Source: Nitrospirota bacterium (GTDB lineage: Bacteria; Nitrospirota; Thermodesulfovibrionia; Thermodesulfovibrionales; JdFR-85). Taken from it: a DNA stretch of 64,000 nt. The notes below the pieces were generated by a model. It was not told where the DNA came from, did no database searches, and saw nothing but the letters and a program-made list of their open reading frames with translations. Below, piece after piece: positions 3,202-40,758 of this stretch; position 1 is the stretch's first letter; each line of letters begins with the position of its first letter. A program made the translations under genes and the position numbers. The stretch lies in contig JAADGG010000025.1 in the NCBI GenBank assembly GCA_013152485.1, forward strand, positions 50 to 64,049, written 5' to 3'.

Positions 3202-4479
3202 TCAGAAGAGCATCTTCTGTCCCTTGATCTCCTCCCTTTCGACCTTCTCGAAGATCCTTATCCTGCCGTACTCGCCGTCGAAGCCCGGGGCGATATGGAT
3301 CCGGCCCGTACGCACCCTGGAGACGGCCTCCATCAACAGGGGCGAGCCCGCCCTGCCGATATCCTCAAGGGGTGTCTCCATGAGGATTTCGAATTCATTG
3401 CCGAGGCTGCTGAGGACCTTCAGGTATTCGTTGTTCACCTTCTTGCTGTTGACCCCGACCTTGAGGGTCTCCGAGATTATCTCGGGCAGGGGGATCAGGG
3501 AGTGGAAGCCCGGCAGGCCGGGCGGACTGAACCCCTCCTGCCTGTCCGCAAGCTCTTCGACCCTGTGCATGACACCGACCGTGACCCGTCTGCCGCAGAC
3601 CGGGCAGAGGTAGTCGTGCTCTATGGTCTCCCTCGGCGAGAGGCTCACACCGCAGAGCCTGTGACCGTCATAGTGGTACTTGCCCTCTTCAGGGAAGAAC
3701 TCTATGGTGCCGAGAAGACCCTTCTTTGTCCTGACGGCCTCCATGATGGCTCCATATGAGAGGTCGGTGTCGAATATGTTCGCCTCGCGGCCGATCTTTG
3801 CGGGCGAGTGGGCATCGGAGTTCGATATGAGGGTTATGCCGTCAAGCCGTGAGAGCCTCCGGTTCATCTGCGGGTCCGAGGAGAGCCCGGTCTCTATGGC
3901 GTGGATGTGCGGGGTCAACTCCTCGAAGCACTCCTCGAGAGAATCGAAGCCCGACATCGCCCCGAAGACCGAGAAATGCGGGGTCCATGCATGGGCCGGC
4001 ACGAGCATGGCATCGGTGGACACATCCAAGACCATCTTCAGGAGCTCCTTTGCATCGAGCCCGAGTATCGGCCTGCCGTCTGCCCTGAGGTTACCTATAC
4101 CCGACAGGACCGCATTCAGCCTTGCGGCATCGGCAAAGTCGGGCACGAACACGATGGAGTGTATCTTCCTGGTCCTGCCGCCCTTGCTGTATATGCAGCT
4201 GATCTCAGCGGAGAGGAGGAAGAAGGGCTCGGCCCGGCAGGAATCCGGGACCTCTGCAGTCCTGTAGTCGTCCTTCAGGGTGAAGAGGCCGTTGCCGGCA
4301 GGTTCGAGCTTCTCCCGGAGCTCGTTGAGCCACCCCGGATGCGTGAAGTCCCCGGTGCCTACGACGTTGACGCCCTTGAGCTGCGCCCACTTCCATATGC
4401 TCTCAGGGGACATCTCCCTGCTGGTAGCCCTCGAGTACTTCGAATGAATGTGGAGGTCCGCTACGAAACGCATGTGCAA
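3202..4479 (-). CDS. PHP-domain protein, endonuclease Q-like (TIGR00375-type)
   Basis: 425-aa ORF. N-terminal DLHIHSKYS...GTGDFTHP PHP motif, later HYDGHRLC and a CPVCGRRVTVGVMHRVEEL zinc-finger-like segment. It lies 5 nt upstream of the helicase gene. Confidence 0.65.
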   Translation of the reverse strand: MHMRFVADLHIHSKYSRATSREMSPESIWKWAQLKGVNVVGTGDFTHPGWLNELREKLEPAGNGLFTLKDDYRTAEVPDSCRAEPFFLLSAEISCIYSKGGRTRKIHSIVFVPDFADAARLNAVLSGIGNLRADGRPILGLDAKELLKMVLDVSTDAMLVPAHAWTPHFSVFGAMSGFDSLEECFEELTPHIHAIETGLSSDPQMNRRLSRLDGITLISNSDAHSPAKIGREANIFDTDLSYGAIMEAVRTKKGLLGTIEFFPEEGKYHYDGHRLCGVSLSPRETIEHDYLCPVCGRRVTVGVMHRVEELADRQEGFSPPGLPGFHSLIPLPEIISETLKVGVNSKKVNNEYLKVLSSLGNEFEILMETPLEDIGRAGSPLLMEAVSRVRTGRIHIAPGFDGEYGRIRIFEKVEREEIKGQKMLF

Positions 4480-4497
4480 TTATACCATGAATAGTGT

Positions 4498-4586
4498 CCG
4501 TTAAAAACACGGGAACCATCCCCTCTCCTGCCATGACTTGCCCTGTTTGCCTGACGGTATCGACCACAAACAAAGGTTTGAAAATC
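4498..4586 (+). repeat. U unit with 5' extension, direct orientation
   Basis: ccgttaaaaacacgggaaccatcccctctcctgccatgacttgccctgtttgcctgacggtatcgacc... aligns with the reverse complements of 584-652 and 102-158. Confidence 0.65.
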
Positions 4587-4650
4587 TTAAATATCGGAAA
4601 GGATTCAGAATTTTTTAAAGAAAAGCCTGTGATTCCATGAGAAAATGGAA

Positions 4651-4679
4651 TTGATTTCCGGCAAGTTTTGTTATATGAT
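4651..4679 (+). promoter_or_regulatory. Candidate sigma70-type promoter for the GT4/GDE gene pair
   Basis: TTGATT (4651-4656), 17-nt spacer, TATGAT (4674-4679). It is followed by an 8-bp hairpin ttagcact/agtgctaa at about 4688-4714. Confidence 0.35.
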
Positions 4680-4766
4680 GGGTTATTAGCACTCTCTGCG
4701 TTAAAGTGCTAACAACATCCTGATCAGTGATCATTACCTATTTCGGGACATGCGGAGGTGATAGTA

Positions 4767-5821
4767 ATGAGAATTGCTCAGGTTTCCCCGCTTTACGAGA
4801 GTGTTCCACCCCGTCTTTATGGAGGGACAGAGAGGATCGTTTCTTACCTTACCTTACCGAGGAGCTGGTCAAGGCGGGTCACGAGGTGGTGCTCTTCGCC
4901 TCCGGTGACTCAGAGACCTCGGCCGAGCTCGTGCCGATATGCGAGACCGCCCTGAGGCTCGAGAAGAGGTGTGTGGACCCTGTCTCGCTCCACTTTCTAC
5001 AGATGGAGGAAGTCCTGAAGCGCCAGGACGAGTTTGATATCATACACACGCATGTCGACTGTTTCGGTTTCGCCCTAGCAAGGAGGACGGCCGTGCCTGT
5101 GGTCAGCACCCTTCACGGCAGGCTCGACCTCTGGGGCTATCCATCCGTCTTCAGGGAGTACCGGGAGATCCCCCTCGTCTCGATCTCGAACGCCCAGAGG
5201 AGTCCGCTGCCCTTTGCGAACTGGGCTGCGACCGTCTACCACGGACTGCCCGGCGAGTTGTACAACCTGAACGAGGACGGCGGTGACTATCTCGTCTTCG
5301 TCGGAAGGGTATCACCCGAAAAGCGGGTTGATTCCGCGATCGAGATAGCCGTAAAGGCCGGCATCCCGCTCAAGATAGCGGCAAAGGTGGACAAGGCCGA
5401 CGCCGAATACTTCGAGGCGATGATCCGTCCCCTGCTGAAGCATCCGCTCGTGGAGTTCCTCGGAGAGATCAACGACGAGGAGAAGAACGAGCTTCTCGGC
5501 TCGGCACTCGCCTTCCTGCACCCTGTCGACTGGCCGGAACCCTTCGGTCTTGCGATGATCGAGGCGATGGCCTGCGGCACCCCCGTGATAGCGAGGCGCA
5601 GGGGGTCCATTCCCGAGGTGGTCGATCACGGAATAACCGGGTTCATCTTTGAGGAGGACAAGGAGGCTGTCTTCAGTATCAAGAACCTCCTCGGCAACTT
5701 TTCGAGGAGGGCCTGCAGGGAGCATTTCGAGAAGAGGTTCCTGGCAAGCAGGATGGCCGACGATTACCTGGGTGTCTACGTCAGGCTGCTGAGCGGGAAG
5801 TATGAACAGAAAGTCGCCTGA
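4767..5821 (+). pseudogene. GT4-family glycosyltransferase interrupted by a +5 frameshift (extra CTTAC unit)
   Basis: The N-terminus MRIAQVSPLYESVPPRLYGGTERIVSYLT is in the frame of ORF 4758-4955, with RBS ggagg 7 nt before ATG 4767. The rest (EELVKAGHEVVLFASGDSE...) is in the frame of ORF 4727-5821. The junction is cttaccttaccttacc (4843-4858). Deleting one cttac restores IVSYLTEELVKAGHEV. Confidence 0.85.
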
Positions 5822-7979
5822 AGTCAGCAGGATAAGGGACAAGTACTACATCTCGGCCACCTCCTCGATGATCGACCCCCACAGGCTCATCCTGAAGGAA
5901 GAGGACCTGTTCGGGGTATTCGACCGTTTCGGCGACATCCTCCCGATGGGGAAGAACGAGCAGGGCCTCTACTTCAAGGGGATGAGGTTCCTCTCGTACT
6001 ACGAGCTCAGGATAGGGGGGCTGAGGCCCCTGTTTCTGTCCTCCTCGGTCGACGAGGAGGACATCCTCCTCACCGTCGACCTTACCAACCCCGACCTGTA
6101 CTCGAGGGGCAGGCTCCTGATAAAGAAGGACACGGTTCACATCATGCGTTCGAAGGTCCTGTTCGAGCAGAGGTGTCTCGACTACATCAGGATCAGGAAC
6201 TTCGGCCTCCATGCGATAGACCTGAGCCTCGACTTCTCCATGGACGCGGACTTCAAGGACATCTTCGAGGTACGCGGGCTGAAGAGGAAGAAGAGGGGGA
6301 CCATCCACCCCCCTGAATACAGGGAGCGGGGCATGGTACTGACCTACGAAGGCCTCGACGGTGTCAGGCGGACGACGTCCATCGGCTTTTCGAGATCACC
6401 CGACGGGGTTCACGACAAGACCTTCTCCTTCAAGATCAGGCTGGACCCGGGGGGCATGGAGGAGATGCTGCTCGGCATCGGCTGCGCAGTGGCCGGCACG
6501 GCTCGGGAAGAGCCGGAGTTCGACGTGACGGTAAGGAAGTCGAGAAAGAAGCTCCAGAGAAAGACGCGGCACTGCACGGAGATATACACCTCGAACGAGC
6601 AGTTCAACGAATCCCTCAAGAGGGCGATCTCGGACATCAACATGATGCTCACGAAGACGGAGCACGGTCTTTACCCCTACGGAGGCATCCCCTGGTTCTG
6701 CACCCCGTTCGGCAGGGACGGGATCATCACAGCGCTCGAGTCCCTGTGGGTGAATCCGGAACTGGCAAAGGGGGTCCTGCTCTACCTCGCCGCCAGGCAG
6801 GCTCAGGACTTCGACAGGACAAAGGCGGCCGAGCCCGGCAAGATACTCCACGAGGCACGGGAAAACGAGATGGCCGCCCTGGGGGAGATCCCGTTCGGCC
6901 TCTATTACGGAAGCGTCGACTCCACCCCCCTGTTTCTCATCCTCGCGGGGGCCTACTGGAGGAGGACCGGGGATACGGCCCTGATATCAAAGATATGGGA
7001 CAACATAGAGAAGGCCCTGTTGTGGATGGAGAGGCACGGTGATGTGGATGGTGACGGCTTCCTCGAATACGTGCCGCATGAAAACGGGCTTCGCAACCAG
7101 GGGTGGAAGGACTCGCATGACTCCATCTTTCATGAAGACGGGTCTCTCGCAGAGGGGCCGATAGCGCTGTGCGAGGTGCAGGGCTACCAGTATGCCGCAA
7201 AGCAAGAGGTGGCGATGCTTTCCGCCCTCATGGGGAAGGAGGCCCTTGCGCGGAGGCTGCTGCAGGAGGCTCGGGAGTTGAAGGAGAGGTTCAACAGTCT
7301 CTTCTGGGACGAGGAGCTGGGCACTTACGTGCTCGCCCTCGACGGCGCGAAGAGGCCCTGCAGGGTGGTCTCCTCCAATGCCGGACAGGTGCTCTTCACG
7401 GGGATCGCCGATCCAGGCAAGGCCGTGAAGGTCGCCGAGACCCTGACGTCTGATACGGTCTTCTCAGGCTGGGGAATAAGGACCGTAGGAACCGGTGAGG
7501 CGCTCTACAATCCGATGTCCTACCACAACGGCTCCGTGTGGCCTCACGACAACGCCCTGATAGCCTACGGGTTCTCCGTATACGGCCTGAAGGAGCCTTT
7601 CATAAAGGTCTTCTCGGGAATATTCGATGCCTCGCTCTTCATGGAGTTTCAGCGCCTTCCCGAGCTCTTCTGCGGTTTCAAGAGGAGGCGCGGTGCGCCC
7701 CCGACGCTCTATCCGGTTGCGTGCGTTCCGCAGACGTGGGCCGCCGGCTCACTCCTTCTGATGCTTCAGGCATCGCTCAGGCTCGGGTTCGAGGCCGACC
7801 GGGGACGGATCGTCTTCAGGCAGCCTGTACTGCCGGAGTTTCTCCAGCAGGTCTTCCTCAAGAACCTGACCGTGACGGGGAAGAAGAGCGTCGACCTTCT
7901 GATCAGGCGTTACGGCGAGGATGTGACCATCGAGGTTCAGCGTAAGCCCGAGGACGTGAGCGTGCTTATAATCAAGTAG
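5802..7979 (+). CDS. Amylo-alpha-1,6-glucosidase / glycogen-debranching-enzyme-like protein
   Basis: 725-aa ORF. Has the GDE N-terminal domain pattern plus the (alpha/alpha)6 C-domain motifs GIPWFCTPFGRDG, GKILHE and YHNGSVWPHDN. Overlaps the GT gene by 20 nt. Confidence 0.8.
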   Translation: MNRKSPEVSRIRDKYYISATSSMIDPHRLILKEEDLFGVFDRFGDILPMGKNEQGLYFKGMRFLSYYELRIGGLRPLFLSSSVDEEDILLTVDLTNPDLYSRGRLLIKKDTVHIMRSKVLFEQRCLDYIRIRNFGLHAIDLSLDFSMDADFKDIFEVRGLKRKKRGTIHPPEYRERGMVLTYEGLDGVRRTTSIGFSRSPDGVHDKTFSFKIRLDPGGMEEMLLGIGCAVAGTAREEPEFDVTVRKSRKKLQRKTRHCTEIYTSNEQFNESLKRAISDINMMLTKTEHGLYPYGGIPWFCTPFGRDGIITALESLWVNPELAKGVLLYLAARQAQDFDRTKAAEPGKILHEARENEMAALGEIPFGLYYGSVDSTPLFLILAGAYWRRTGDTALISKIWDNIEKALLWMERHGDVDGDGFLEYVPHENGLRNQGWKDSHDSIFHEDGSLAEGPIALCEVQGYQYAAKQEVAMLSALMGKEALARRLLQEARELKERFNSLFWDEELGTYVLALDGAKRPCRVVSSNAGQVLFTGIADPGKAVKVAETLTSDTVFSGWGIRTVGTGEALYNPMSYHNGSVWPHDNALIAYGFSVYGLKEPFIKVFSGIFDASLFMEFQRLPELFCGFKRRRGAPPTLYPVACVPQTWAAGSLLLMLQASLRLGFEADRGRIVFRQPVLPEFLQQVFLKNLTVTGKKSVDLLIRRYGEDVTIEVQRKPEDVSVLIIK

Positions 7980-8078
7980 AGAGGTCCGGGGTGATTTCGA
8001 AAACCGGAAGGATTACGGCGGTCGAGCCCCCGGGTGGGGCCTCCTGCAGGCTCGGTGCCGGCAGGAGGGGAACCGGTC

Positions 8079-8240
8079 TCAGCGGCCGGTCTTTTCCTTC
8101 TTGACATACTTTTCGGGATTCTTTTCGAACTCCGCCTGGCAGAGGGGGCAGCACAGATAGTAGTTCTTCCCCTCGTGCTCGATCGTGATGTGCGCCTTGT
8201 TGGGATTCATCTTCCTTCCACAGACCGGGTCTTTATGCAT
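8079..8240 (-). CDS. YHS-domain small protein (53 aa, below the ORF-track cutoff)
   Basis: Hand translation: MHKDPVCGRKMNPNKAHITIEHEGKNYYLCCPLCQAEFEKNPEKYVKKEKTGR. This is a YHS/TRASH-like DPVCGM...Y.FCS..C pattern. The gene lies directly downstream of the cupredoxin and copA genes. Confidence 0.7.
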   Translation of the reverse strand: MHKDPVCGRKMNPNKAHITIEHEGKNYYLCCPLCQAEFEKNPEKYVKKEKTGR

Positions 8241-8259
8241 GATTCATACCTCCTTCCTG

Positions 8260-8631
8260 TTATTCCTCTACAATGAGTTTTCCCCTGATCATTCCCATCT
8301 GACAGGAGAAGTCGTACTCGCCGGGCTTTTCCGGCAGGAGTTCCACCACCACCTCTTCATACGGCGGAAGCTTTGCAGACTTGTTGAACGCGCCGAAGAC
8401 GACCATCTCCGTGCATGAGGCCTCTTCCTCGCGCGTGAAGATGAGCCTGAGGGGTTGTCCCGCCTTTGCGACTATTACGTCGGGGTCATAGCCCCCCTTC
8501 ACTTTTATGAAGACTTCCTGGATGCCTGACGATACGGCCGCCCTGACCTGCTTCTTCCTGGAGAAGAGGAAGAACCAGATGATCCAGGCTATGGTGAGAA
8601 TGCCCGCTGCTGTCACTATAACCTTGTCCAT
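8260..8631 (-). CDS. Membrane-anchored cupredoxin-like protein
   Basis: 123-aa ORF with an N-terminal TM helix, then a beta-rich domain ending in FSCQMGMIRGKLIVEE (Cys/Met ligand-like). It starts 4 nt after the copA stop. Confidence 0.6.
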   Translation of the reverse strand: MDKVIVTAAGILTIAWIIWFFLFSRKKQVRAAVSSGIQEVFIKVKGGYDPDVIVAKAGQPLRLIFTREEEASCTEMVVFGAFNKSAKLPPYEEVVVELLPEKPGEYDFSCQMGMIRGKLIVEE

Positions 8632-12246: not shown

Positions 12247-13370
12247 GGACATGCCCTCGTGCCGCACCTGCACCATACGCATGTACAGTCATTGCGGCTG
12301 CAGCTGAGGTCCCTCACCCGGCTCTCGTACCCCGCGCTTGCAATCGGCAGCAGGAGGTTCTTGAAGAGAGAGGGTCTGTAGAGCCTCTTGAGGACCCTCG
12401 AGGGGTTGCCCCTGCCGAAGCATCTCGTCAGGTACCTGTAGCCTGCATGACCTATCCTTTCGAACAGGAAGCGGTTGACGAGGGAGGCCTCGAGCCCGGG
12501 CCTCAGCTCCCTCTGCCACAGTGTGTCGTAGTCGTCACCCTCTATGAAGCTCCGTGCAGCGATATATCCCGACAATATCGCATACCTCATGCCGAAGCCC
12601 CAGAGGCAGTCCTGGAAGCCCGCCGCCTCGCCGACGTAGATCTTTCCGTTGCGCACCTGGGAGTCCCGAAGGAAGAAGTTTCCGTAACCGCCGAACTTCC
12701 TCCTGTTTTCCATGTGTAGGTCCATCTTCTCGCTGAAGAAACCGAGGGTCTTTTCGAAATAGTCGTCCGCCTTCTTGAAGTTCCTGTAGAGGACGGTGGC
12801 CATCGTACCGTAGCCCTGTTTTATCAGAAGGTATGCGTATCCCTTCGGAGCGATCCCGTCATCGAGCACCACGGCCGCCATGTCCTTCATTTCGGTATTG
12901 AAGGTTATGCCGACGGCGACCGCGTCGGCTCCTTTGGGGCCTGTGCCGACGATCGCCCTGCCCTTGAAGCTGTCGAGGCGGTGGTTGAACGAGATCTCCA
13001 CGCCGAGCGACAGTGCCTGCTCCTTGAGGCCCCAGTCGAGGGTTCCCGGCATGCTGCCCCTCCTTACGAGATAGAAGATAGGCCTGTCCGAGCTCACTTC
13101 CACGGGATCCAGGCCGGGCGCATACAGTGTGCCTTCGTGGTAGGGCATGCAGAGGAAGTTGATCCCTATGCCGATATCCCGCAGCTGCTCGGTGACGTCT
13201 GTTTCGGAGCTCCAGTTCTCGAGCCCCTGAAAGTCGCCGCTCAGGCGGTGACCCACGTCCGGCGCCGCCTCGAAGACCTTGACGGCAAACCCGTGTCTGC
13301 GCAGGACTATGGCCGCTGCCAGAGACGCCGGGCCTGCCCCGATGATATGTACTGTCTCCTTGTGCGTCAT
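12243..13370 (-). CDS. FAD-dependent oxidoreductase (geranylgeranyl-reductase-like) with Cys-rich C-terminus
   Basis: The true start gives MTHKETVHIIGAGPASLAAA (GxGxxG dinucleotide fold). The track ORF is extended 47 aa upstream into galT. The C-terminus is CSRNDCTCVWCRCG. The start overlaps the galT stop by 1 nt (TGATG). Confidence 0.7.
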   Translation of the reverse strand: MTHKETVHIIGAGPASLAAAIVLRRHGFAVKVFEAAPDVGHRLSGDFQGLENWSSETDVTEQLRDIGIGINFLCMPYHEGTLYAPGLDPVEVSSDRPIFYLVRRGSMPGTLDWGLKEQALSLGVEISFNHRLDSFKGRAIVGTGPKGADAVAVGITFNTEMKDMAAVVLDDGIAPKGYAYLLIKQGYGTMATVLYRNFKKADDYFEKTLGFFSEKMDLHMENRRKFGGYGNFFLRDSQVRNGKIYVGEAAGFQDCLWGFGMRYAILSGYIAARSFIEGDDYDTLWQRELRPGLEASLVNRFLFERIGHAGYRYLTRCFGRGNPSRVLKRLYRPSLFKNLLLPIASAGYESRVRDLSCSRNDCTCVWCRCGTRACP

Positions 13371-14383
13371 CACGCAGTTTCTCCGTTGGGCACCTCGAAG
13401 CCCCGGATGTATTCGGCGGTCTCCTCGGGAAGCGCATGGTTGATGTAGATGCCCGAGCCGAGCTCGAACCCTGCAGGCAGGGAGAGACGCGGGATTATCT
13501 GGATGTGCCACAGGAAGTAGGCCTTGTGTTCGTCGTCCACAGGTGCAGTGTGGATGACCATGTTGTAGTCTGGATTCTCGAGACTGACATACAGCTTCAG
13601 CAGGACCTGTTTCAGTGTCGCAGCGAGGTCCGCGACCTCGTCGTCAGAGATGTTTCCGAATGACGAGTTGTGCACCTTCGGCATGAGCCAGGTCTCGAAC
13701 GGGTAGCGCGACGCATAGGGGTGCAGGACGATGAAGTATTCCGTCTCGGCTATGGTCCGCTCCGATGTGCGGAGCTCGTAGTCCCGTATGTCGCAGTAGA
13801 GGCAGCGGCCCGTGTTGTCGTAGTACTGGACGGCTATCTCGTAGCGTCGCCGTACAGACGGCGGGACGATCGGTGAGGCGACGACCTGTGAGTGCGGATG
13901 TTCGAGCGAGGTGCCTGCCCCGCGGCCGTGATTTTTGAGGATTATGACCGTTCTGACCGCGGGGTCTTTTTTGAGTGCGTGGTACCTGTCCCTGTATACC
14001 CTGATGATTCCCCCGACGTCTGAATCGTCCATGAAGGGGATGAAGTTGTCATGCCGCGGTGTCTCGATGACGACCTCGTGGCTGCCGTATCCGGGACTCT
14101 TCCTGAAGGGGCCGATCTCCTCTCTTTCAGCTGTGACGTCGGTGGTGAGTGCGGCGAACTTGTTCGGCACCACACGGGTCTTCCATTCACCGGGCCCTCC
14201 GTATACGGCCTTCGCCTCAGGCGTCCTGTGCTCGTTTCCCGGACAGAAGGGACAGCTGTCGCTGTGAGCGGGAAAATACGGCCGCGTCATGTTCTCCTTC
14301 CTGAACTCCCATGGCCGCTTTGCCCGCTCTTTGGCAATGATGACCCAGTCGTACGTGGTCGGGTCCTGCCTCAGTTCTGACAT
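13370..14383 (-). CDS. galT: Galactose-1-phosphate uridylyltransferase-like HIT-superfamily nucleotidyltransferase
   Basis: 337-aa ORF with the CPFCPGNE zinc motif, VVPNKFAAL and the HPHSQ active-site motif. Confidence 0.8.
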   Translation of the reverse strand: MSELRQDPTTYDWVIIAKERAKRPWEFRKENMTRPYFPAHSDSCPFCPGNEHRTPEAKAVYGGPGEWKTRVVPNKFAALTTDVTAEREEIGPFRKSPGYGSHEVVIETPRHDNFIPFMDDSDVGGIIRVYRDRYHALKKDPAVRTVIILKNHGRGAGTSLEHPHSQVVASPIVPPSVRRRYEIAVQYYDNTGRCLYCDIRDYELRTSERTIAETEYFIVLHPYASRYPFETWLMPKVHNSSFGNISDDEVADLAATLKQVLLKLYVSLENPDYNMVIHTAPVDDEHKAYFLWHIQIIPRLSLPAGFELGSGIYINHALPEETAEYIRGFEVPNGETA

Positions 14384-14417
14384 AAGTTTCTCCTTTCCTT
14401 TTCAACTGCCGTCCCTC

Positions 14418-17899: not shown

Positions 17900-19162
17900 C
17901 TACTTGTGCCTCCGTGGCTTGTGCGCAGGCGTCCGTTTGTGCCTTGGATGCCTTGTCCGGTCCCTCTGCGGCCGGGGGCCCTTCTTCCTGGCACGCGCGG
18001 GTATCTTGCTGCGGTAGTCCGTGACTATCATCTCGTCCGTCAGCGGCACCACGGGGATCTTCTGCCTGATGTATTTTTCGACGTCGAGGAGCGAGTGGAC
18101 GTATTTCTCGCATGCGAGGGTTATGGCCCTGCCGTCCGCCCCGGCCCGTGCGGTCCTGCCGATACGGTGCACGTAGTCCTCGGGGTTCTGGGGGAGGTCG
18201 TAGTTTATGACGTGTGTTACGCCGTCGATATGCAGGCCCCGGCTCGCCACGTCAGTGGCTGCAAGGATGGGCAGGGTGCCGTCCTTGAAGCGGGAGAGCA
18301 CCTTCATCCGTTTCTTCTGGGGCAGGTCGCCGGTTATTGCCGCAGTCGGCAGGCCGTTGGCGTTCAGCAGTGCCTCGAGGCGCTCGGTCGCCGCGCGGGT
18401 GTTGCAGAATATGAGGTAGCGGCCGTTGGGGTCACGCCTCAGGATTCCGAGCAGGAGGCCGAACTTCTCGGACGTGCCCACGTGATAGATCTCCTGCTTT
18501 ATCTGCTCCACGGTGACCTTTTCGGGCGTCACCGTGATCTTCTCGGGCATGTTCATGTGTTCATAGCAGAGCTCGAGCACCCGGGTGGTCAGGGTTGCGG
18601 AGAAGAGCATGGACTGTCGCCTGTCATAGGGCGACATCCTCCTGAGGAGGAATCTCAGGTCACTGATGAACCCCATGTCGAAGAGACGGTCGGCCTCGTC
18701 GATCACGAGGAACTGCGTCTTCCTTAGGCTGTAGACCCTCTGCTTGAGGTAGTCGATGAGCCGGCCAGGCGTGCCGATGAGCACGTCGACGCCCTTTGCG
18801 AGCTCCTCACGCTGCTTCCTGTAGTCGATGCCGCCGAAGACGGGGACGATCCTGAAGCCGGCGGGGCCTCCGAGCAGCTTCGCCTCTGCCTCTATCTGTA
18901 CGACGAGCTCCCTCGTCGGTGCGATTATCAGTGCACGGGGCGAGGGTCCTCGTCCGGGCGGAGGCACCGTGAGCATGCGTGAGAAGACGGGGATCAGGAA
19001 GGCCGCGGTCTTGCCCGTGCCCGTCTGTGCCTGGGCGGCGATGTCCTTGCCGCGCAATGCCAGCGGCAGGGTCCGCGCCTGTACGGGGGTACACTCGGTG
19101 AATCCAGCGGCCCTGATTCCCTCAAGGACCTTTTCCGGGATGTCCAGTTCTTCGAATTTCAC
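17900..19162 (-). CDS. DEAD-box ATP-dependent RNA helicase
   Basis: 420-aa ORF with the Q motif, AQTGTGKT, DEAD, SAT, HRIGRTARAG and a basic C-terminal tail. Confidence 0.9.
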   Translation of the reverse strand: MKFEELDIPEKVLEGIRAAGFTECTPVQARTLPLALRGKDIAAQAQTGTGKTAAFLIPVFSRMLTVPPPGRGPSPRALIIAPTRELVVQIEAEAKLLGGPAGFRIVPVFGGIDYRKQREELAKGVDVLIGTPGRLIDYLKQRVYSLRKTQFLVIDEADRLFDMGFISDLRFLLRRMSPYDRRQSMLFSATLTTRVLELCYEHMNMPEKITVTPEKVTVEQIKQEIYHVGTSEKFGLLLGILRRDPNGRYLIFCNTRAATERLEALLNANGLPTAAITGDLPQKKRMKVLSRFKDGTLPILAATDVASRGLHIDGVTHVINYDLPQNPEDYVHRIGRTARAGADGRAITLACEKYVHSLLDVEKYIRQKIPVVPLTDEMIVTDYRSKIPARARKKGPRPQRDRTRHPRHKRTPAHKPRRHK

Positions 19163-19325
19163 TATCTACTACTATACATCAAGCCCGGTGTTTTCATAAA
19201 GCGGTCGGGATGCGGGGCGGGACTCGTACCCTCGTGCAGGGCTGAATTCTTTCTCTGTCGATGCCTTGATTTTCTTGATGACAACTCAAGCAGTAGTCCG
19301 TGAAGCCTCCTCCTGAAGGAGAGGG

Positions 19326-19380
19326 GATGACGTGCACCCCTTATTCGGACGGTATTGTTTCGGGGACACTTTTCTTGATC
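19326..19380 (+). repeat. U unit, direct orientation (upstream of pcrA)
   Basis: gacgtgcaccccttattcggacggtattgtttcggggacacttttc matches 27381-27425 with 3 mismatches in 45 nt. Confidence 0.7.
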
Positions 19381-19430
19381 CAATGCGGGGGTTTGCCTTA
19401 TTGGATGAAAACCCTTAATAATAGACCTCC

Positions 19431-21544: not shown

Positions 21545-21950
21545 ATATTACACCGGCAATAAAACACCATAGACCAATAGACCATGGCTGAAAGGTTACA
21601 GGAAGCGGTTATTTCTGTATCCAGGCAGCAGTTTGTCATGCAGGACTTTATCCTGCGTTATGAAAGGGCTACGAAGTAATAATTGATGGTTGTTGAGAGC
21701 AATATGACAGACTCTTCGCTCATTCGTGCCGGCGTCCGGCTCGTCCAGGCATCCGGCCTGGACTCCGAGGCAAGTATCACGCTTCACCATCCAGGTGAAG
21801 CCCTTGTGATACTTGAAACCGTTCAGAGTCTGTCATATCGCTCTCCCTTTCCATAAATTGAGCCTCTTTATTTCTGTGTCCGGGCATTGGTTTGTAATGC
21901 ATGACTTGATTGTGCGTTATGAATAGGGTTATGGTACTTATTTGCCGAGG
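21545..21950 (+). repeat. Structured repeat element, copy B (unit-core-unit; core 21704-21836)
   Basis: The 12-bp stem is atgacagactct (21704-21715) with agagtctgtcat (21825-21836). Internal hairpins are gtccaggc/gcctggac and aagtatcacgcttcacc/ggtgaagcccttgtgatactt. A ~85-nt unit (ttatttctgt.tcc.ggc...tgcgttatgaa.ggg) is present on both sides of the core. Confidence 0.8.
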
Positions 21951-22215
21951 TCGATCGAGTTATAACCCGATCACGGATATAGTGAGCATATGGCCTTCCT
22001 GAACCGAGTCAGGCCAGGGTGAGCTGAAACAATGTCGGCTCAATCATGAGACAACTACATAACGGGGAGAGTGCGGCAGCGGCCGTTCTGGTCAGGAGAG
22101 CAGGATTGAAAAAGCAGAAACATGAGGGGGACATGGGCAGCCTGGTCTGGAGGGCTTTCCGGCCCACTGATCCGTCAGTGCGGGCGGAATCTCTTGCCGG
22201 GTCCGGTCGGGAACC

Positions 22216-27378: not shown

Positions 27379-27431
27379 GTGACGTGCACCCTTTATTCGG
27401 ACGGTATTGTTTCAGGGACATTTTCAATGAC
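27379..27431 (+). repeat. U unit, direct orientation (upstream of tRNA-Ala)
   Basis: gacgtgcaccctttattcggacggtattgtttcagggacattttc is a near-identical twin of 19328-19372. Confidence 0.7.
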
Positions 27432-27515
27432 CTGATGCGCACGATGTAAATCCTTGTAAGTTTTATGATATTATAGATGGGGCTTGCGGAACGTTTGAAG
27501 CGAGTACTCAGCGTC

Positions 27516-27591
27516 GGGCGGTTAGCTCAGTCGGGAGAGCGCCAGAATCGCACTCTGGAGGTCGGGGGTTCGACTCCCCTACCGTCCACCA
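27516..27591 (+). tRNA. tRNA-Ala (anticodon CGC), CCA encoded
   Basis: Hand-folded cloverleaf. The acceptor stem gggcggt/accgtcc contains the G3:U70 alanine identity pair. D arm gctc/gagc, anticodon stem ccaga/tctgg with loop atCGCac, T arm ggggg ttcgact cccct, then ACCA. Confidence 0.9.
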
Positions 27592-27614: not shown

Positions 27615-28592
27615 TCAGCAGTAATCCTCGTAACTTCCAAGCGAGGAGAACTCATACAGCGTCGACATCGCCCTGCTCTCGGTGGTAATGCCGGACTCCT
27701 CCAGTATGGCTACGGGGTTCAGCCCCCCGACTATCACCATGCCGGCGCGGTCCAGGCCCACGGGCATCTCGTAAAGGGGGCTGTTCGGTTCACCGATGCA
27801 GAGTATGCCCCCTATGCCTTTGGCCCGCAGCCTCTCTGCAAGGTCCCTCGCGCTTCCGTGGCAGACGACCGGGATCTCCCGGAAACTCGCCAGCACCCTG
27901 CCCGTTCCGTGGCGGACGGCCCCGCCGACATCCGTCATCTTGCCCCGTATGAAGACCTCCAGCGGATCGAGAGAGGAGCCTTCGTAGCTTATCAGCGCAA
28001 TGAACCGAGTAGGTCTCCCTCCTTCGATCTCGAGCACTCCGCCGAATCTCGAGGCCACGGGAATGCCTGCCTTGAGGAAGACGCCGTTTATGGTGACGCT
28101 GCAGACCGTTCCCAACGCTACTTTGCCCTCGGGCACGACGATATCGCCGAGCCGTCCGCCTTCACTGACCACCGCAAGCCGGTCACTCATCACATAGGGG
28201 GATCTGAAGACCGGGCGCATGGTCCTGAGGGCCTTCTTGAGGTCTTTCTCCGCTATATAGGATACGTTCAGTATCACGTCTCCCTTCAGTGTGTCGAGGT
28301 CGAGGTTCGTGAGGTAGGAAAGGGTGTCGATCCGGCTGATGACAAACCCGACCTTCTCGGAAACAAGGGCCTTGGCGAGCTCTTCCCGCCCCTTTTCCGT
28401 TATCTTTCTCCCCTCCTTGCCGAAGGGCTCCGTAAGGCCCATCTCATCGAGGATCTTGAGGTGATACCTCACGGTCCTCTCCGAAAGGGTCACCCCGTGG
28501 GTCTTCAGCCGGCGCGCTATCTCTCGTGAGCCGGTTATCGCGTCCTGATAACCCTCGAGTACCCTCAGTATGGCGATCAGTGTCCTGTTCAT
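27615..28592 (-). CDS. nrpR: NrpR-family nitrogen regulatory repressor (HTH plus one DUF128/NRD domain)
   Basis: Starts MNRTLIAILRVLEGYQDAITGSREIARRLKTHGVTLSERTVRYHLKILDEMGLTE (winged HTH), followed by an NrpR regulatory domain. I use start ATG 28592; the track ORF extends 36 aa into the glnA 3' region. Confidence 0.7.
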   Translation of the reverse strand: MNRTLIAILRVLEGYQDAITGSREIARRLKTHGVTLSERTVRYHLKILDEMGLTEPFGKEGRKITEKGREELAKALVSEKVGFVISRIDTLSYLTNLDLDTLKGDVILNVSYIAEKDLKKALRTMRPVFRSPYVMSDRLAVVSEGGRLGDIVVPEGKVALGTVCSVTINGVFLKAGIPVASRFGGVLEIEGGRPTRFIALISYEGSSLDPLEVFIRGKMTDVGGAVRHGTGRVLASFREIPVVCHGSARDLAERLRAKGIGGILCIGEPNSPLYEMPVGLDRAGMVIVGGLNPVAILEESGITTESRAMSTLYEFSSLGSYEDYC

Positions 28593-28636
28593 GAAAAGCC
28601 TCCTGAAAACTGTATTGATTGAAGCCGGCGCAGAGA

Positions 28637-29965
28637 CTACAGCATCGGCAGATATGTCTCTATCTCGTAGGGGAAGACCCTCGTGCGGTAGTCGTCCCAC
28701 TCTATCTTCTTGCTAAGGATCAGCTCGTTGAACACGTGCTCTCCGAGCGTCTCCCTCAGAAGCCCGCTCCCCTCGGCATGCTCGATCGCCTCTATCAGGC
28801 TGCCGGGAAGCTGATCGATCCCAAGCCCGCGCCTCTCGGTGTCGGAGAGGTGGTATACGTCGGTCTCCGCAGGTTCGCTCAGGGAGTATCCCTGCTCTAT
28901 CCCCCTGAGGCCCGCGTTCAGCATGCAGGCGAAGGCGAGGTATGGATTGCATGCGGGGTCGGGAGAGCGGAGCTCGATCCTCGTGGCCCCTTCCTTGCCG
29001 GGCTTGTAGAGCGGCACCCGCACGAGTGCCGAGCGGTTTCTCCTTGCCCAGCATATGTACACAGGGGCCTCGAACCCCGGCACCAGCCTCTTGTAGGAGT
29101 TGACCCACTGGTTCAGCACGAGGGTGAATTCCTTCACATGCCTGAGCAGGCCTGCAACGTAGTGCTTGGCGGTCTCGGAGAGGTAGTAGCGGTCGTTCGG
29201 ATCGAAGAAGGCGTTCTCTTCCCCCCGGAAGAGGGACTGGTGCGTATGCATGCCGCTTCCGTTCTGGCCGAATATCGGCTTCGGCATGAACGTGGCATAA
29301 ACGCCGTACTTCCTTGCTATCTCCTTGACCGTCACCCTGTAGGTCATGACCGTGTCTGCCATGGTGAGGGCGTCGGTGTACCTGAGGTCTATCTCGTGCT
29401 GCGAGTGGGCCACTTCGTGATGTGAATACTCGACCCGTATGTCCATCGCCTCGAGAGCCAGAATGGTCTCCCTCCTCAGGTCCTCGGCCGCGTCCATCGG
29501 ATAGTCGAAGTACCCGCCCTCGTCGAGTATCTCGGGCGACTTTTCGCTCCGGAAATAGAAGAACTCCAGCTCGGGTCCGACATGGAACGTATAGCCCTTT
29601 TCCCGTGCCTTCTCGAGGTTTCTTCTCAGGACGTATCTCGGGTCCCCCTTGTAAGGGGTGCCGTCGGGCTCGTAGATGTCGCAGAACATCCGGGCAACGG
29701 CCTTCTCCTTCGGCCTCCAGGGCAGCAGGACGAACGTTGCCGGATCCGGACGAGCGATCATGTCGCTTTCATCTATGCGGGCAAACCCCTTTATGGAGGA
29801 GCCGTCGAAGCCCATGCCTTCCTCGAACGCGTACTCGAGCTCCTCCACGGGCATTGCAAAGCTCTTGAGCATCCCGTGGATATCGGAAAACCATAGCCTT
29901 ACGAACTTCACGTTGTGCTTCTTCACAAGGTCCAATACATCCTTGCCGTCACGCGGTCTCTCCAT
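28637..29965 (-). CDS. glnA: Glutamine synthetase, type I (short, GSI-alpha-like, 442 aa)
   Basis: Has FSDIHG, GFDGSS, GPELEFF, MPKPIFGQNGSGMHTHQSL and NSYKRLVPGFEAP. The length and the lack of the ~25-aa GSI-beta insertion suggest the alpha subtype. Confidence 0.9.
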   Translation of the reverse strand: MERPRDGKDVLDLVKKHNVKFVRLWFSDIHGMLKSFAMPVEELEYAFEEGMGFDGSSIKGFARIDESDMIARPDPATFVLLPWRPKEKAVARMFCDIYEPDGTPYKGDPRYVLRRNLEKAREKGYTFHVGPELEFFYFRSEKSPEILDEGGYFDYPMDAAEDLRRETILALEAMDIRVEYSHHEVAHSQHEIDLRYTDALTMADTVMTYRVTVKEIARKYGVYATFMPKPIFGQNGSGMHTHQSLFRGEENAFFDPNDRYYLSETAKHYVAGLLRHVKEFTLVLNQWVNSYKRLVPGFEAPVYICWARRNRSALVRVPLYKPGKEGATRIELRSPDPACNPYLAFACMLNAGLRGIEQGYSLSEPAETDVYHLSDTERRGLGIDQLPGSLIEAIEHAEGSGLLRETLGEHVFNELILSKKIEWDDYRTRVFPYEIETYLPML

Positions 29966-30052
29966 TGCCTGACCTCCTTGATTTGTGATGAGTCACTCGT
30001 TCGCGTCGCTTCCGGCGACCGTTTGCCGTGGTTGTAATAATAACCTAACCGG

Positions 30053-32875
30053 TCAGCAGCGTCCCGTAATGTCCAGCACGGAGCTCCTGAGCCCTTCGAG
30101 GTGTCCGAGGAACTCTTCCGTGCTGCGGTGTCTCATGAACCTGCCGGCCAGGTCCGTAATCTCCGATCCCTTGACGACCACATGCTCCTCGTTCAATCTC
30201 AGGAAGGTCTCGAGCCTCCTGTAATACGCGTAGGCGTCGAGCAGGGTGTCTCTCTCGGTGGAGCCTATGAGTCCTTTCCCTGCCAGCCTCCTGATCGCGG
30301 CAGAGGTGCACTGGACGAGCAGTTCGGGGTGTTGACGCACATGCTGAAGCTGCAGGAACTGGACGTGGAACTCTATCTCCTCGATACCGCCCGGTCCGAG
30401 CTTGATATCCATTCCTGCCGCCTCCTGTGAGAGCTCGCGCACTATCCGTTCTCTCACGGCGCGTATCTCCTCTCTCTTCACCTCTCTCCCGCGCTGCCTG
30501 ATCACCTCGGCAGCCATCTCCAGGAAGGCCCTGCCAGCCCCGCGGTCCCCTGCCACGGGCCGTGCGCGCAGGAGCGCCTGAAGTTCCCATGGCCGGGCGT
30601 TCTTGAGATAGTAGTTCCTGTAGCCCTGAATGTCCTTCACGAGGGCGCCCTTCGAACCGTCCGGCCTAAGTCTCACATCCACACTGTAGAGCATGCCCTT
30701 GTCAGTGTACGTCGTGAGGGTCTTCACTGCGCTCTCGGCGGCCCTCACTCCTTCCGGTGCATCCGAGAGGAAGATTATGTCGAGGTCCGAGCCGAACGTC
30801 AGCTCCCTTCCACCGAGCTTGCCGAGGCCGATGACGGTCAAACCGCTGTCGCCGCCGGTCCTTTCGATGATCGTCCCGATTACGGCGTCGGCAAGGTGCG
30901 AGACAGACCTCAAGAGGTCCTGTATCGTCAGGACGTCCATGAGGAAGAAGAGGCCGAGGCGGAGTTCTTCCGTCCGCTTGTATTCTCCGACCGCCTCGAG
31001 GTCTCCCCCTCCGAACCGGATGCTCCTGCGGAGCTCCTCCTCCACCCTTCTCTTGGTCTTCCTTATGACCAGTCCCTCGACCAGTCTGTCGAGATAGCTG
31101 TTGTCGCTCAGGAAGACTCTCGACAGGTATGAGCTCAGGGAGAAGAGCTTGACTATGGCCTCGACAAGCCCCTTGTGTTCGGCCACTCCCGTCAGGTAGG
31201 CCTCTTTCTCGCCGAGGACTTCGATGAAGCTCTCGAGCCCCTTGAGCGCCCTGTCAGGGCTCTCTGCGCTGAAGGCCTTCTCCAGAAACTCGGGGACGAC
31301 CCTCCTCAGTATGGCCCGCTCCCTCTGAGTCTTGAAAGTCCTCATCTGGTCCCGCACGTTCTGCAGGTACACGACCGCTGCCTCCGGTTCCTTCACTCCC
31401 CTGAACGAGAGATATCGCCTCAGCTCGTCTTCCGTCAGGTCACCCTCGATCAGTGCAAGCGCCTCGGCATGGAGGTCCTCTTCCGTGCCGAGCAGGGAGT
31501 TGTACATCTTCTTCACCTGCATGCGCCTGAGGCGGAGGTCTGCGAGGAACTCCGCTGCAGAGGAAAAACTCATCGTCCGTGCAAGCACCTCTTTCTCGTG
31601 ACGGGAAGCGGGCAGCCTGTGGGTCTGCAGGTCCTCTTTCATCTGCAGGTAATGCTCCAGCCTCCTCAGGTACAGATAGTTGTCCCACAGCGTGGCGAGG
31701 TCCTCCTGCGGAACCAGGTTCATCCATCTCAGCACCTGTATGGCGTTGAAGAGCCTGTGGGTCCTCAGGGCCCTGTTGTCTCCCCCGTAGATGAGCTGGA
31801 AGGTCTGTACGAAGAACTCTATCTCCCTGATTCCGCCGTAGCCCCGCTTTATGTCATCCCTCGAAAGCGTTGAATCTATCCTCTTCTTGAGTCCACGGAT
31901 CTCCTCTACTTCCGAGAAATCGAGACTCTTTCTCCAGACAAACGGGCTGACCGCCTCCATGAACTTCAGCCCCAGCTCCGTGTCGCCTGCTACCGGCCTC
32001 GCCCTGATGAGCACCATCCGTTCCCACGTACGGCCCCAGGACTCGTAGTATGTCCTGTAGGAATCGAGCGGCATCGTCAGCTCCCCCTTCTGCCCCTGGG
32101 GCCTGAGCCTGAGGTCGACCCTGTATGCGATGCCGTCCTCCGTAGGGAGCGAAAGCATTCTGCTGAGGAGCTCGACGACCCTGCAGTGGAACTCGTGGCT
32201 GCCTATCCTGTTCACCCTTACGCCCGAGGGATTGAGGATTCCCGAGGTCTGTCCGTCTCCGTGACCGTAGACGGCGATTAGGTCGACATCGGAGCTGTAG
32301 TTCAGCTCGGCCCCACCCAGCTTTCCGAGACCCACAACGGTGATCGCCGTCTCCGGAGGATCACCGAACCTGCTGCGGTTGACCCTCAGGGACCACTCGA
32401 GCGAGAGCCCGATCAGTGCCTCTGCAAGCAGGGTCAGCTCGTCCATCGACGAGAGTATGTCGGTCTCGCCGCAGACGTCCCTCAGCGTGATCCTCAGGAG
32501 GTAGCGCTTCTTGAAATCCCGCAGCGCCTTCATCATAGCGGTCAAATCCCCCTGCGCTTCAGGGCCGATCTCCGTCCGTATCCTCTCGAGGAGCAGTTCC
32601 CTTGATACGGGCCTCTTCGTCTCCTTCAGCGCCGAAAGGAGGTCCTCGGGGCTGGACGTGGAGTAGTTTGCGAGAAACTGGCTTACGGCAAAGAGCTTGC
32701 AGACCTCGGCGAGGTATGGAAGGAAAGGGCCCGAAGGGGTGAGCCCGAAGAGCCGCAGGATGTTCCTCTCCGCCCTTTCCGGGTCAGGCGTATCCCGGGA
32801 GATCTCAACGATCCTCTTATGCAATCCTTCATCTACAGACATCGCCTCCCGTCCTCTGCAGTCCTCCGTTGTCAA
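30053..32875 (-). CDS. glnE: Bifunctional glutamine synthetase adenylyltransferase / adenylyl-removing enzyme
   Basis: 940-aa ORF with two nucleotidyltransferase modules (GKLGG.EL.Y.SDVDLI and GKLGGRELTFGSDLDIIF), each followed by a GlnE C-terminal helical domain. Confidence 0.9.
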   Translation of the reverse strand: MTTEDCRGREAMSVDEGLHKRIVEISRDTPDPERAERNILRLFGLTPSGPFLPYLAEVCKLFAVSQFLANYSTSSPEDLLSALKETKRPVSRELLLERIRTEIGPEAQGDLTAMMKALRDFKKRYLLRITLRDVCGETDILSSMDELTLLAEALIGLSLEWSLRVNRSRFGDPPETAITVVGLGKLGGAELNYSSDVDLIAVYGHGDGQTSGILNPSGVRVNRIGSHEFHCRVVELLSRMLSLPTEDGIAYRVDLRLRPQGQKGELTMPLDSYRTYYESWGRTWERMVLIRARPVAGDTELGLKFMEAVSPFVWRKSLDFSEVEEIRGLKKRIDSTLSRDDIKRGYGGIREIEFFVQTFQLIYGGDNRALRTHRLFNAIQVLRWMNLVPQEDLATLWDNYLYLRRLEHYLQMKEDLQTHRLPASRHEKEVLARTMSFSSAAEFLADLRLRRMQVKKMYNSLLGTEEDLHAEALALIEGDLTEDELRRYLSFRGVKEPEAAVVYLQNVRDQMRTFKTQRERAILRRVVPEFLEKAFSAESPDRALKGLESFIEVLGEKEAYLTGVAEHKGLVEAIVKLFSLSSYLSRVFLSDNSYLDRLVEGLVIRKTKRRVEEELRRSIRFGGGDLEAVGEYKRTEELRLGLFFLMDVLTIQDLLRSVSHLADAVIGTIIERTGGDSGLTVIGLGKLGGRELTFGSDLDIIFLSDAPEGVRAAESAVKTLTTYTDKGMLYSVDVRLRPDGSKGALVKDIQGYRNYYLKNARPWELQALLRARPVAGDRGAGRAFLEMAAEVIRQRGREVKREEIRAVRERIVRELSQEAAGMDIKLGPGGIEEIEFHVQFLQLQHVRQHPELLVQCTSAAIRRLAGKGLIGSTERDTLLDAYAYYRRLETFLRLNEEHVVVKGSEITDLAGRFMRHRSTEEFLGHLEGLRSSVLDITGRC

Positions 32876-40421: not shown

Positions 40422-40758
40422 TATATACCGGCAATAGAACGTCCTGACCCACGGTTGATTAGGTTGCAGGAATCGCTATCTCTGCAGGTTTGTCCTGCCG
40501 GACTTGATCCTGAGTTATGAAAGGGCTGCAGTATTTATTGGTCGAAGTAATTAATAATTTATGGCTGTCGGTAGCGATATGACAGGCTCTCCACTCATTC
40601 TCGTGCCGGCGTCCGGCTCGTACCGGCGTCCGACTCGTACCGGCGTCCGGCCGGGAGTCCGAGGGAATTTCGCAGTTCACCATCCGGGTGAATTTGCTGC
40701 GAAATTAAGACCGTTCAGAGTCTGTCATAGCGCTCCCTGTCCATAATTGAGCCTCTTT
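40422..40758 (+). repeat. Structured repeat element, copy C (unit-core; core 40579-40728)
   Basis: The stem is atgacaggctct (40579-40590) with agagtctgtcat (40717-40728). It has one G.U-compatible change. The hairpin gaatttcgcagttcacc/ggtgaatttgctgcgaaatt replaces the copy B stem with compensatory changes. A 17-nt tandem repeat lies at 40606-40652. Confidence 0.8.

Follow-up and report, generated by a model that had tools for sequence, protein, structure and literature searches.

Simple sequence repeat (SSR) contingency loci of host-adapted bacteria include the tetranucleotide tracts of lic and lgtC, the TCAGC tract of the hmg flippase gene and the GACGA tract of hsdM in Haemophilus influenzae, and the CTCTT tract of opa in Neisseria. 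The length of their repeat unit is not a multiple of three, and in the glycosyltransferase and lipopolysaccharide genes that carry such a tract in their 5' part, one unit switches the reading frame. These properties are shared by the locus analyzed here, which lies in a stretch of 64,000 nucleotides from a Nitrospirota bacterium (assembly GCA_013152485.1, contig JAADGG010000025.1, positions 50 to 64,049 of the forward strand; hereafter "the window", with all coordinates counted from its first letter). In this window, three copies of the pentanucleotide CTTAC are found in the 5' part of a sugar-related open reading frame (ORF), a GT4 glycosyltransferase gene. The closest known enzymes are TeGSS (tll1591; PDB 7FG9/7FGA/8X3U/8X3Q) and alr1000 of Nostoc PCC 7120, which are of the same length class. 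TeGSS, the glucosylsucrose synthase of Thermosynechococcus elongatus for which the structure 7FG9 was solved, is a UDP-glucose-dependent alpha-1,2-glucosyltransferase, and its products, the glucosylsucroses, are induced by salt and heat stress (PMC9909042). Unlike the TeGSS gene, the gene in the window is frameshifted. We consider it probable that the third CTTAC unit stems from a real 5-bp duplication, very recent and specific to this lineage, which left the first gene of a two-gene operon with a null allele, either fixed or segregating, and that the site is not a maintained contingency locus.

Four features of the gene carry this reading; they are listed here with coordinates, strand and the evidence used.

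4754..4761, plus strand: Shine-Dalgarno sequence GGAGGTGA for the start codon ATG 4767 (read from the sequence; kept in 6 of 6 close relatives)

4767..4955, plus strand: truncated product of 62 amino acids, consisting of 29 native residues (including Tyr10 and the catalytic Tyr18) and 33 out-of-frame residues, followed by TGA (translation and mapping of TeGSS residues)

4843..4858, plus strand: three CTTAC units and one further C, a frame-shifting tandem duplication of 5 bp (a 5-nt alignment gap against relatives L001-L006 falls exactly here)

4859..5821, plus strand: rest of the GT4 gene, encoding residues 30-349 (Arg179, Lys184, Trp254 and Glu256 among them), in the displaced frame and without a plausible start of its own (translation)

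Positions 4843-4858 of the window read CTTACCTTACCTTACC, i.e., CTTAC-CTTAC-CTTAC-C, and Tandem Repeats Finder describes the tract as a repeat of period 5 with 3.2 copies and a 100% match. It is the sole perfect tandem repeat with a unit of 4-7 nt and at least three copies in the whole 64 kb, and a second-order Markov model predicts 0.077 pentanucleotide repeats of at least three copies per window. The position of the repeat, exactly at the frame break, is a stronger argument against chance than its rarity. Translation from ATG 4767 yields MRIAQVSPLYESVPPRLYGGTERIVSYLT, the 29 native residues (MRIAQ...IVSYLT), after which the out-of-frame residues run to the TGA at 4953-4955, whereas the rest of the gene is read in a frame displaced by +5 (equivalent to -1) and has its stop codon at 5819-5821. 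When one CTTAC unit is deleted, the sequence becomes ...IVSYLTEELVKAGHEVVLFASGDS..., and a single ORF of 349 amino acids without any internal stop is restored. A tblastn search of the window with this repaired protein returned two high-scoring segment pairs in different frames, covering residues 1-29 and 9-349. A preliminary description of this DNA, made from the sequence alone, had placed the three CTTAC units exactly where the frame of a GT4 glycosyltransferase changes; the repeat, its coordinates, the stop at 4955, the repair by two units and the assignment to GT4 all hold.

The repaired protein has the GT-B/GT4 pair of Pfam domains, Glyco_transf_4 (PF13439, 2.5e-15, residues 18-128) and Glycos_transf_1 (PF00534, 4.3e-26, residues 169-303). 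Among its thousands of protein matches, the best are intact proteins of 349 amino acids that align along the full query with identities of 95, 90, 90 and 89%. It also aligns end to end with the solved structures 7FG9/8X3Q (E=3e-89, approximately 46% identity, residues 1-343 for 7FG9), and shares with TeGSS the N-terminal motif MRIAQV.PL.E.VPP..YGG.E..VS.LTEELVK.GHEV.LFASGDS. Four residues with a catalytic or UDP-binding role in TeGSS (PMC9909042), Tyr18, Arg179, Lys184 and Glu256, are found at the same positions. In the acceptor cavity, Arg117, Lys184 and Trp254 are retained and six other residues are replaced (Trp10 by Tyr, Tyr70 by Pro, Glu74 by His, Tyr97 by Cys, Thr119 by Asp and Asn122 by Tyr); because of these six differences, the acceptor may be a compound other than sucrose. 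By these similarities, the repaired gene is assigned to the TeGSS family as an alpha-1,2-glucosyltransferase homologue. There is no second copy of the GT4 gene in the window.

The consequences of the frameshift for the product can be predicted from the TeGSS mutants Y18F and R179A, both of which are nearly inactive (PMC9909042). The shift separates Tyr18 from Arg179, Lys184 and Glu256, and the three-unit allele is therefore predicted to be null; neither the N-terminal peptide nor a re-initiated C-terminal fragment should be active. The only in-frame starts available to the displaced frame are GTG 4727 and the GTG codons at 4886, 4889, 4931 and 4973. GTG 4727 was rejected as an alternative intact start, since it gives an out-of-frame N-terminus of 39 amino acids that lacks Tyr18. 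The later codons, from 4886 onward, were rejected as well: besides lacking a Shine-Dalgarno sequence, they would remove residues 1-38 or more. For annotation, we suggest the label of a frameshifted gene or pseudogene instead of a protein of 364 amino acids starting at GTG 4727. Metabolic reconstructions of the organism ought not to count on a functional alpha-1,2-glucosyltransferase for as long as the tract has been neither confirmed nor corrected by reads.

Orthologous loci were compared in a set made up of the DNA for the four closest proteins (L001-L006), 80 loci from GTDB representatives (one genome per species) and one contig from a JGI metagenome (L087). The window's own genome was not among the loci returned by the GTDB scan, and none of the 85 orthologous loci comes from the window's own species. 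The nearest group, L001/L007/L087, which includes the hydrothermal "Nitrospirae bacterium HyVt-450", is approximately 87% identical in DNA and, at this distance, represents a different species. In the alignment with L001-L006, the window has exactly five extra bases, and they fall at the repeat. All 85 loci that cover the site read straight through it, mostly as V-S-Y-L-T-E-E-L-V and otherwise as close variants; in the relatives, the Ser-Tyr-Leu-Thr codons are TCA TAC CTC ACC or TCC TAT CTT/CTC ACC. A third CTTAC unit is present in 0 of 85 loci, and two perfect units are found only in L034 and L016. These comparisons indicate that the third unit is private to the lineage of the window and that no repeat tract appears to be maintained at the site across orthologues. 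The two-unit direct repeat CTTACCTTACC would then have arisen incidentally, through the synonymous codons (TCT TAC CTT ACC) chosen in the window lineage. The earlier proposal that the gene is disrupted by one extra CTTAC is thus borne out by the 5-nt gap against six relatives, which sits precisely on the repeat; the comparison of orthologous loci, also suggested there, gave 85 intact frames and none with three units.

The same comparison bears on slipped-strand phase variation, in which high-frequency switching of the tract between two and three units would put the glucosyltransferase, and the operon coupled to it, into ON and OFF states as a form of bet-hedging. Several properties of the tract agree with such a role: the unit is not a multiple of three, it lies early in a glycosyltransferase ORF, and three units just reach the permissive SSR threshold of at least three used by Power et al. 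(PMC2651432). In H. influenzae, switching is known for short pentanucleotide tracts, as in hsdM, where (GACGA)4 changes to three units and back, and strains of the same species differ by two versus three units in the hmg flippase gene (PMC2651432). However, three units are below the cut-off of at least five that PhasomeIt derives for pentanucleotides from experimentally switching tracts (PMC6321876), the tract is missing from every orthologue, including that of the 87%-identical sister species, and the 64-kb window holds no other SSR with a unit of 4-7 nt and at least three copies. Unlike the contingency loci of host-adapted bacteria, this one encodes a cytoplasmic enzyme, which makes a stress solute or oligosaccharide and not a surface antigen, in an organism of a free-living vent or subsurface type. 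We regard phase variation as quite unlikely; the suggestion in the preliminary description that the repeat is a classic signature of this process is not supported by these observations. The evidence instead favors the caveat given there, that the change might equally be a fixed pseudogenizing mutation or an error.

A recent origin of the duplication is suggested by the state of the gene. The ratio of nonsynonymous to synonymous substitution rates (dN/dS) of the repaired gene is 0.058 versus L001, 0.045 versus L003 and 0.065 versus L005, which is equal to or lower than that of the intact neighboring GH176 gene (0.098, 0.047 and 0.119 for the same three relatives). For the part of the GT4 gene downstream of the shift alone, dN/dS is 0.063. 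No other stop or indel was found in the repaired gene, and when amino-acid changes were polarized with outgroups, two conservative replacements (V56I and S59T) were assigned to the branch of the window versus five to the branch of L001. The low dN/dS, the small number of changes and the absence of a second lesion imply that the gene was under purifying selection until essentially the present; hence, the shift is either very recent or artefactual.

The main rival explanation is that the third unit is a sequencing, polishing or consensus artefact, the true sequence having two units and an intact gene. Such an error would account for a gene without any decay in a set of relatives that are all intact, and the lineage is apparently uncultured, with nearest relatives that are all metagenome-assembled genomes, where consensus errors occur. 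Against this explanation, in a 10.5-kb global alignment with L001 the indel at 4843 is the only one in the coding region whose length is not a multiple of three, all others of this kind being intergenic, and approximately 50 other ORFs of the window have complete Pfam domain coverage with no split gene among them. Two apparent gaps in the ORF set turned out to be intact genes masked by the ORF picker. By the alignment and the intact ORFs, the assembly is not generally indel-prone. Moreover, the gain of one 5-nt unit in a 10-nt repeat differs from errors of the homopolymer type; a clean gain of one unit would not be typical of read errors, and an error in the assembly graph is unlikely, because a 15-nt repeat is probably far shorter than assembler k-mers and should not mislead a de Bruijn graph. 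An artefact is therefore improbable in our judgment, but two considerations weigh in its favor and against a real duplication. Neither reads nor a second assembly of the species were found in the collections searched, so the third unit may still stem from an error of consensus or polishing, or belong to a minority variant; and an artefact would show the same complete lack of further decay. Exact-protein look-ups for a second sample of the species, using the downstream GH176, the upstream PHP-like protein, the cupredoxin and the YHS protein, were negative. In JGI metagenomes, a strain-specific DNA pattern that allowed two to four CTTAC units had no match, and a looser pattern retrieved only the 87%-identical sister species (L087).

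The two masked genes are an intact GalT-like gene with the motif CPFCPGNEH (13370-14401, minus strand) and an intact DEAD-box helicase gene (17900-19165, minus strand), each hidden in a naive pick by a spurious longer antisense ORF. For a window as rich in GC as this one, a list of ORFs made mechanically is a misleading guide.

Translational correction was considered as a way by which some or all of the product could be functional despite the shift, either through a -1 shift or through a +5 hop between matched codons (TAC..TAC, CTT..CTT, ACC..ACC). With the duplication, TAC, CTT and ACC each inevitably recur after 5 nt, which provides matching take-off and landing codons, and the first out-of-frame codon in the ribosomal A site, TTA (4854-4856), is the rarest leucine codon of the window (1.2% of leucine codons; 19 of 16,579 codons). 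Low-level hops of +5 and +6 that are stimulated by slow A-site codons have been reported for Escherichia coli (Weiss et al. 1987 and later studies, as cited in PMC5009743). On the other side, no heptamer of the form X XXY YYZ occurs in 4767-4955, the predicted fold of 4859-4960 is no more structured than that of shuffled sequences (z = -1.03), and no orthologue needs recoding. Unprogrammed hops typically have an efficiency of approximately 1% or less, and would provide at best a leak rather than a design. It is conceivable that a low level of hopping occurs at the repeat, adventitiously; a correction that restores function seems to us most improbable. Two specific forms of recoding were rejected: programmed -1 frameshifting, given the lack of a slippery site and of RNA structure and given orthologues that are all single ORFs, and transcriptional slippage, because there is no homopolymer run at the site.

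In our preferred explanation, that of a real and recent duplication, synonymous codon choice at Ser-Tyr-Leu-Thr would first have produced the two-unit direct repeat by chance in this lineage, and replication slippage on these two units would then have added the third CTTAC. The slippage-type origin proposed earlier is consistent with this ancestral state, inferred to be a perfect direct repeat of 11 nt. Ribosomes would start at ATG 4767 and, after the 29 native codons, continue in the shifted frame as far as the stop at 4955. Tyr18 would be kept in the resulting peptide, but Arg179, Lys184 and Glu256 would be lost along with the entire C-terminal Rossmann domain, so that no active transferase would be made. 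The downstream GH176 gene is intact; its translational coupling to the first gene is probably lost and polarity may follow. The allele may be fixed in the population, or it may be a segregating variant that was picked by the assembler. If real, it would be a textbook case of microsatellite birth, in which synonymous changes make a two-unit repeat and slippage adds the third unit. Lesions of this type are familiar, and the context of the operon, i.e., its CIRCE-like element and the pairing of GT4 with GH176, is more interesting than the lesion itself.

Upstream of the GT4 gene, two elements of the leader were identified.

4651..4679, plus strand: sigma-70-like promoter TTGATT-17-TATGAT of the GT4-GH176 operon (the only promoter-like site in 4400-8300; the -10 region is conserved in relatives)

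4686..4712, plus strand: CIRCE-like inverted repeat TTAGCACTC-N9-AAGTGCTAA (one mismatch to the HrcA operator consensus; 7 nt past the -10 hexamer)

The CIRCE consensus used for comparison was TTAGCACTC-N9-GAGTGCTAA, with a 9-N9-9 arrangement. The element is the single match in the window, where 0.04 are expected by chance. As in the CIRCE/HrcA systems of the groESL and dnaK operons, the 9-N9-9 inverted repeat is located between the -10 hexamer and the start codon; unlike in those operons, it precedes genes of sugar metabolism, not chaperone genes. Conservation in L001/L002/L007 and L005 extends to both arms, with two mismatches each, while the spacer has diverged and that of L005 is unrelated. 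The element is absent from L003, L004 and L006 and from all more distant orthologous loci; its distribution is thus confined to the closest clade (the window, L001/L002/L007 and L005). A Pfam scan of the window ORFs revealed no hrcA within the 64 kb. These observations suggest that this small clade recruited the GT4-GH176 operon into the HrcA heat-shock regulon. By analogy with TeGSS, the product of which is a stress solute that accumulates in heat and salt (PMC9909042), heat-shock control would fit the reported induction of glucosylsucroses. A combined scenario can also be envisaged, in which the tract is a nascent switch between two and three units in a free-living, vent-associated bacterium, stochastically turning a CIRCE/HrcA-controlled operon for alpha-1,2-glucoside synthesis and hydrolysis ON and OFF, with OFF cells perhaps leaking by a +5 hop at the rare TTA codon; we consider this very unlikely.

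A dispersed repeat of approximately 80 nt with the core AAGTCATGGCAGGAGAGGGGATGGTTCC.GTGTTTTTA (a hairpin followed by a T-run) has a copy at 4490-4568, in the divergent intergenic region that separates the PHP-like gene from the GT4 promoter. Relative to L001, this copy is an insertion of 79 nt. Further copies of the same repeat are found at 114-163, 193-233 and 588-661.

The second gene of the operon directly follows the frameshifted GT4 gene.

5802..7979, plus strand: intact gene of the GH176 family (GDE_N_bis plus MGH1-like glycoside hydrolase domain), overlapping the GT4 stop by 20 nt (Pfam; PDB 7VMA)

Its domains are PF14742 (GDE_N_bis, 4e-53) and PF22422 (MGH1-like_GH, an (alpha/alpha)6 fold, 2.1e-20), and residues 133-665 of its product match 7VMA (TgAMY) with E=9e-89. 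On these matches, the gene is assigned to the glycoside hydrolase family GH176. TgAMY belongs to GH176, alpha-1,2-glucosidase activity has been shown for a member of the family, and the label "debranching enzyme" has been questioned (bioRxiv 10.64898/2026.07.01.735942). The linkage in question, attacked by the alpha-1,2-glucosidase of Arthrobacter humicola A8F5, is that made by transferases of the TeGSS type. In contrast to TgAMY and the A8F5 enzyme, the protein in the window has an additional N-terminal GDE_N_bis domain, and in contrast to TeGSS, the partner of the GT4 gene is this hydrolase, with no sucrose-phosphate synthase gene adjacent. The source annotations, together with matches to TIGR02149 and GDE_C that are far under the cut-offs, suggest a pair of glycogen synthase and debranching enzyme; this reading was set aside, since the matches to TeGSS and GH176 are much stronger.

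The 20-nt overlap noted in the preliminary description is confirmed, and the same overlap occurs in every relative. Together with the weak Shine-Dalgarno sequence of the GH176 gene (GGGAAG), this conserved overlap suggests translational coupling of GH176 to GT4. Lower expression of GH176 from the three-unit allele, including an effect of polarity, is plausible.

This pairing of genes recurs widely. A full-length GH176 homologue begins at the stop of the glycosyltransferase gene, on the same strand, in 46 of 84 loci; another 16 have a shorter GH176 catalytic domain next on that strand, and in 4 it is on the opposite strand. Thus, the same-strand arrangement is found in at least 62 of 84 loci, from Nitrospirota, Deltaproteobacteria, Proteobacteria, the Candidate Phyla Radiation (CPR) and other groups. 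The TeGSS paper and the GH176 preprint make no mention of it. The conserved gene order suggests a module of an alpha-1,2-glucoside synthase and the corresponding hydrolase, and would support an alpha-1,2-glucoside as the substrate for a large uncharacterized cluster of GH176.

Two variants of the arrangement were observed. In L005, an 89%-identical relative (GCA_054014435.1, JBPMGW010000003.1, 1-5000), genes of GH57 and GH77 (MalQ) lie upstream of the pair and replace the PHP-like gene; this context hints at a link to alpha-glucan metabolism. The homologue P0092, of 545 amino acids, combines the GT4 domains and GDE_N_bis (PF14742) in one product, and may be either a genuine fusion of the glycosyltransferase and GH176 or the result of a read-through over the 20-nt overlap in another genome.

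Several features elsewhere in the window are of separate interest. A second family of dispersed intergenic repeats, approximately 250 nt long and up to 95% identical over 81 nt, is represented at 330-555, 21609-21970 and 40488-40758. Two tandem copies occur at 21.6-21.97 kb, and one copy of the family holds a 17-nt unit repeated three times in tandem (40600-40651). No convincing ORF was found in this family, and a search of Rfam gave no match in the GT4 leader or in either of the two dispersed repeat families. A direct repeat of 60 nt with 85% identity is present at 19328-19387 and 27380-27439, the second copy being approximately 80 nt upstream of the gene for tRNA-Ala(CGC) at 27516-27591. Finally, in the region 27615-32875 on the minus strand, the gene for a nitrogen repressor of the NrpR type (HTH_12 plus NRD1_2), a family best known from archaea, adjoins the genes for glutamine synthetase (glnA) and the adenylyltransferase GlnE.

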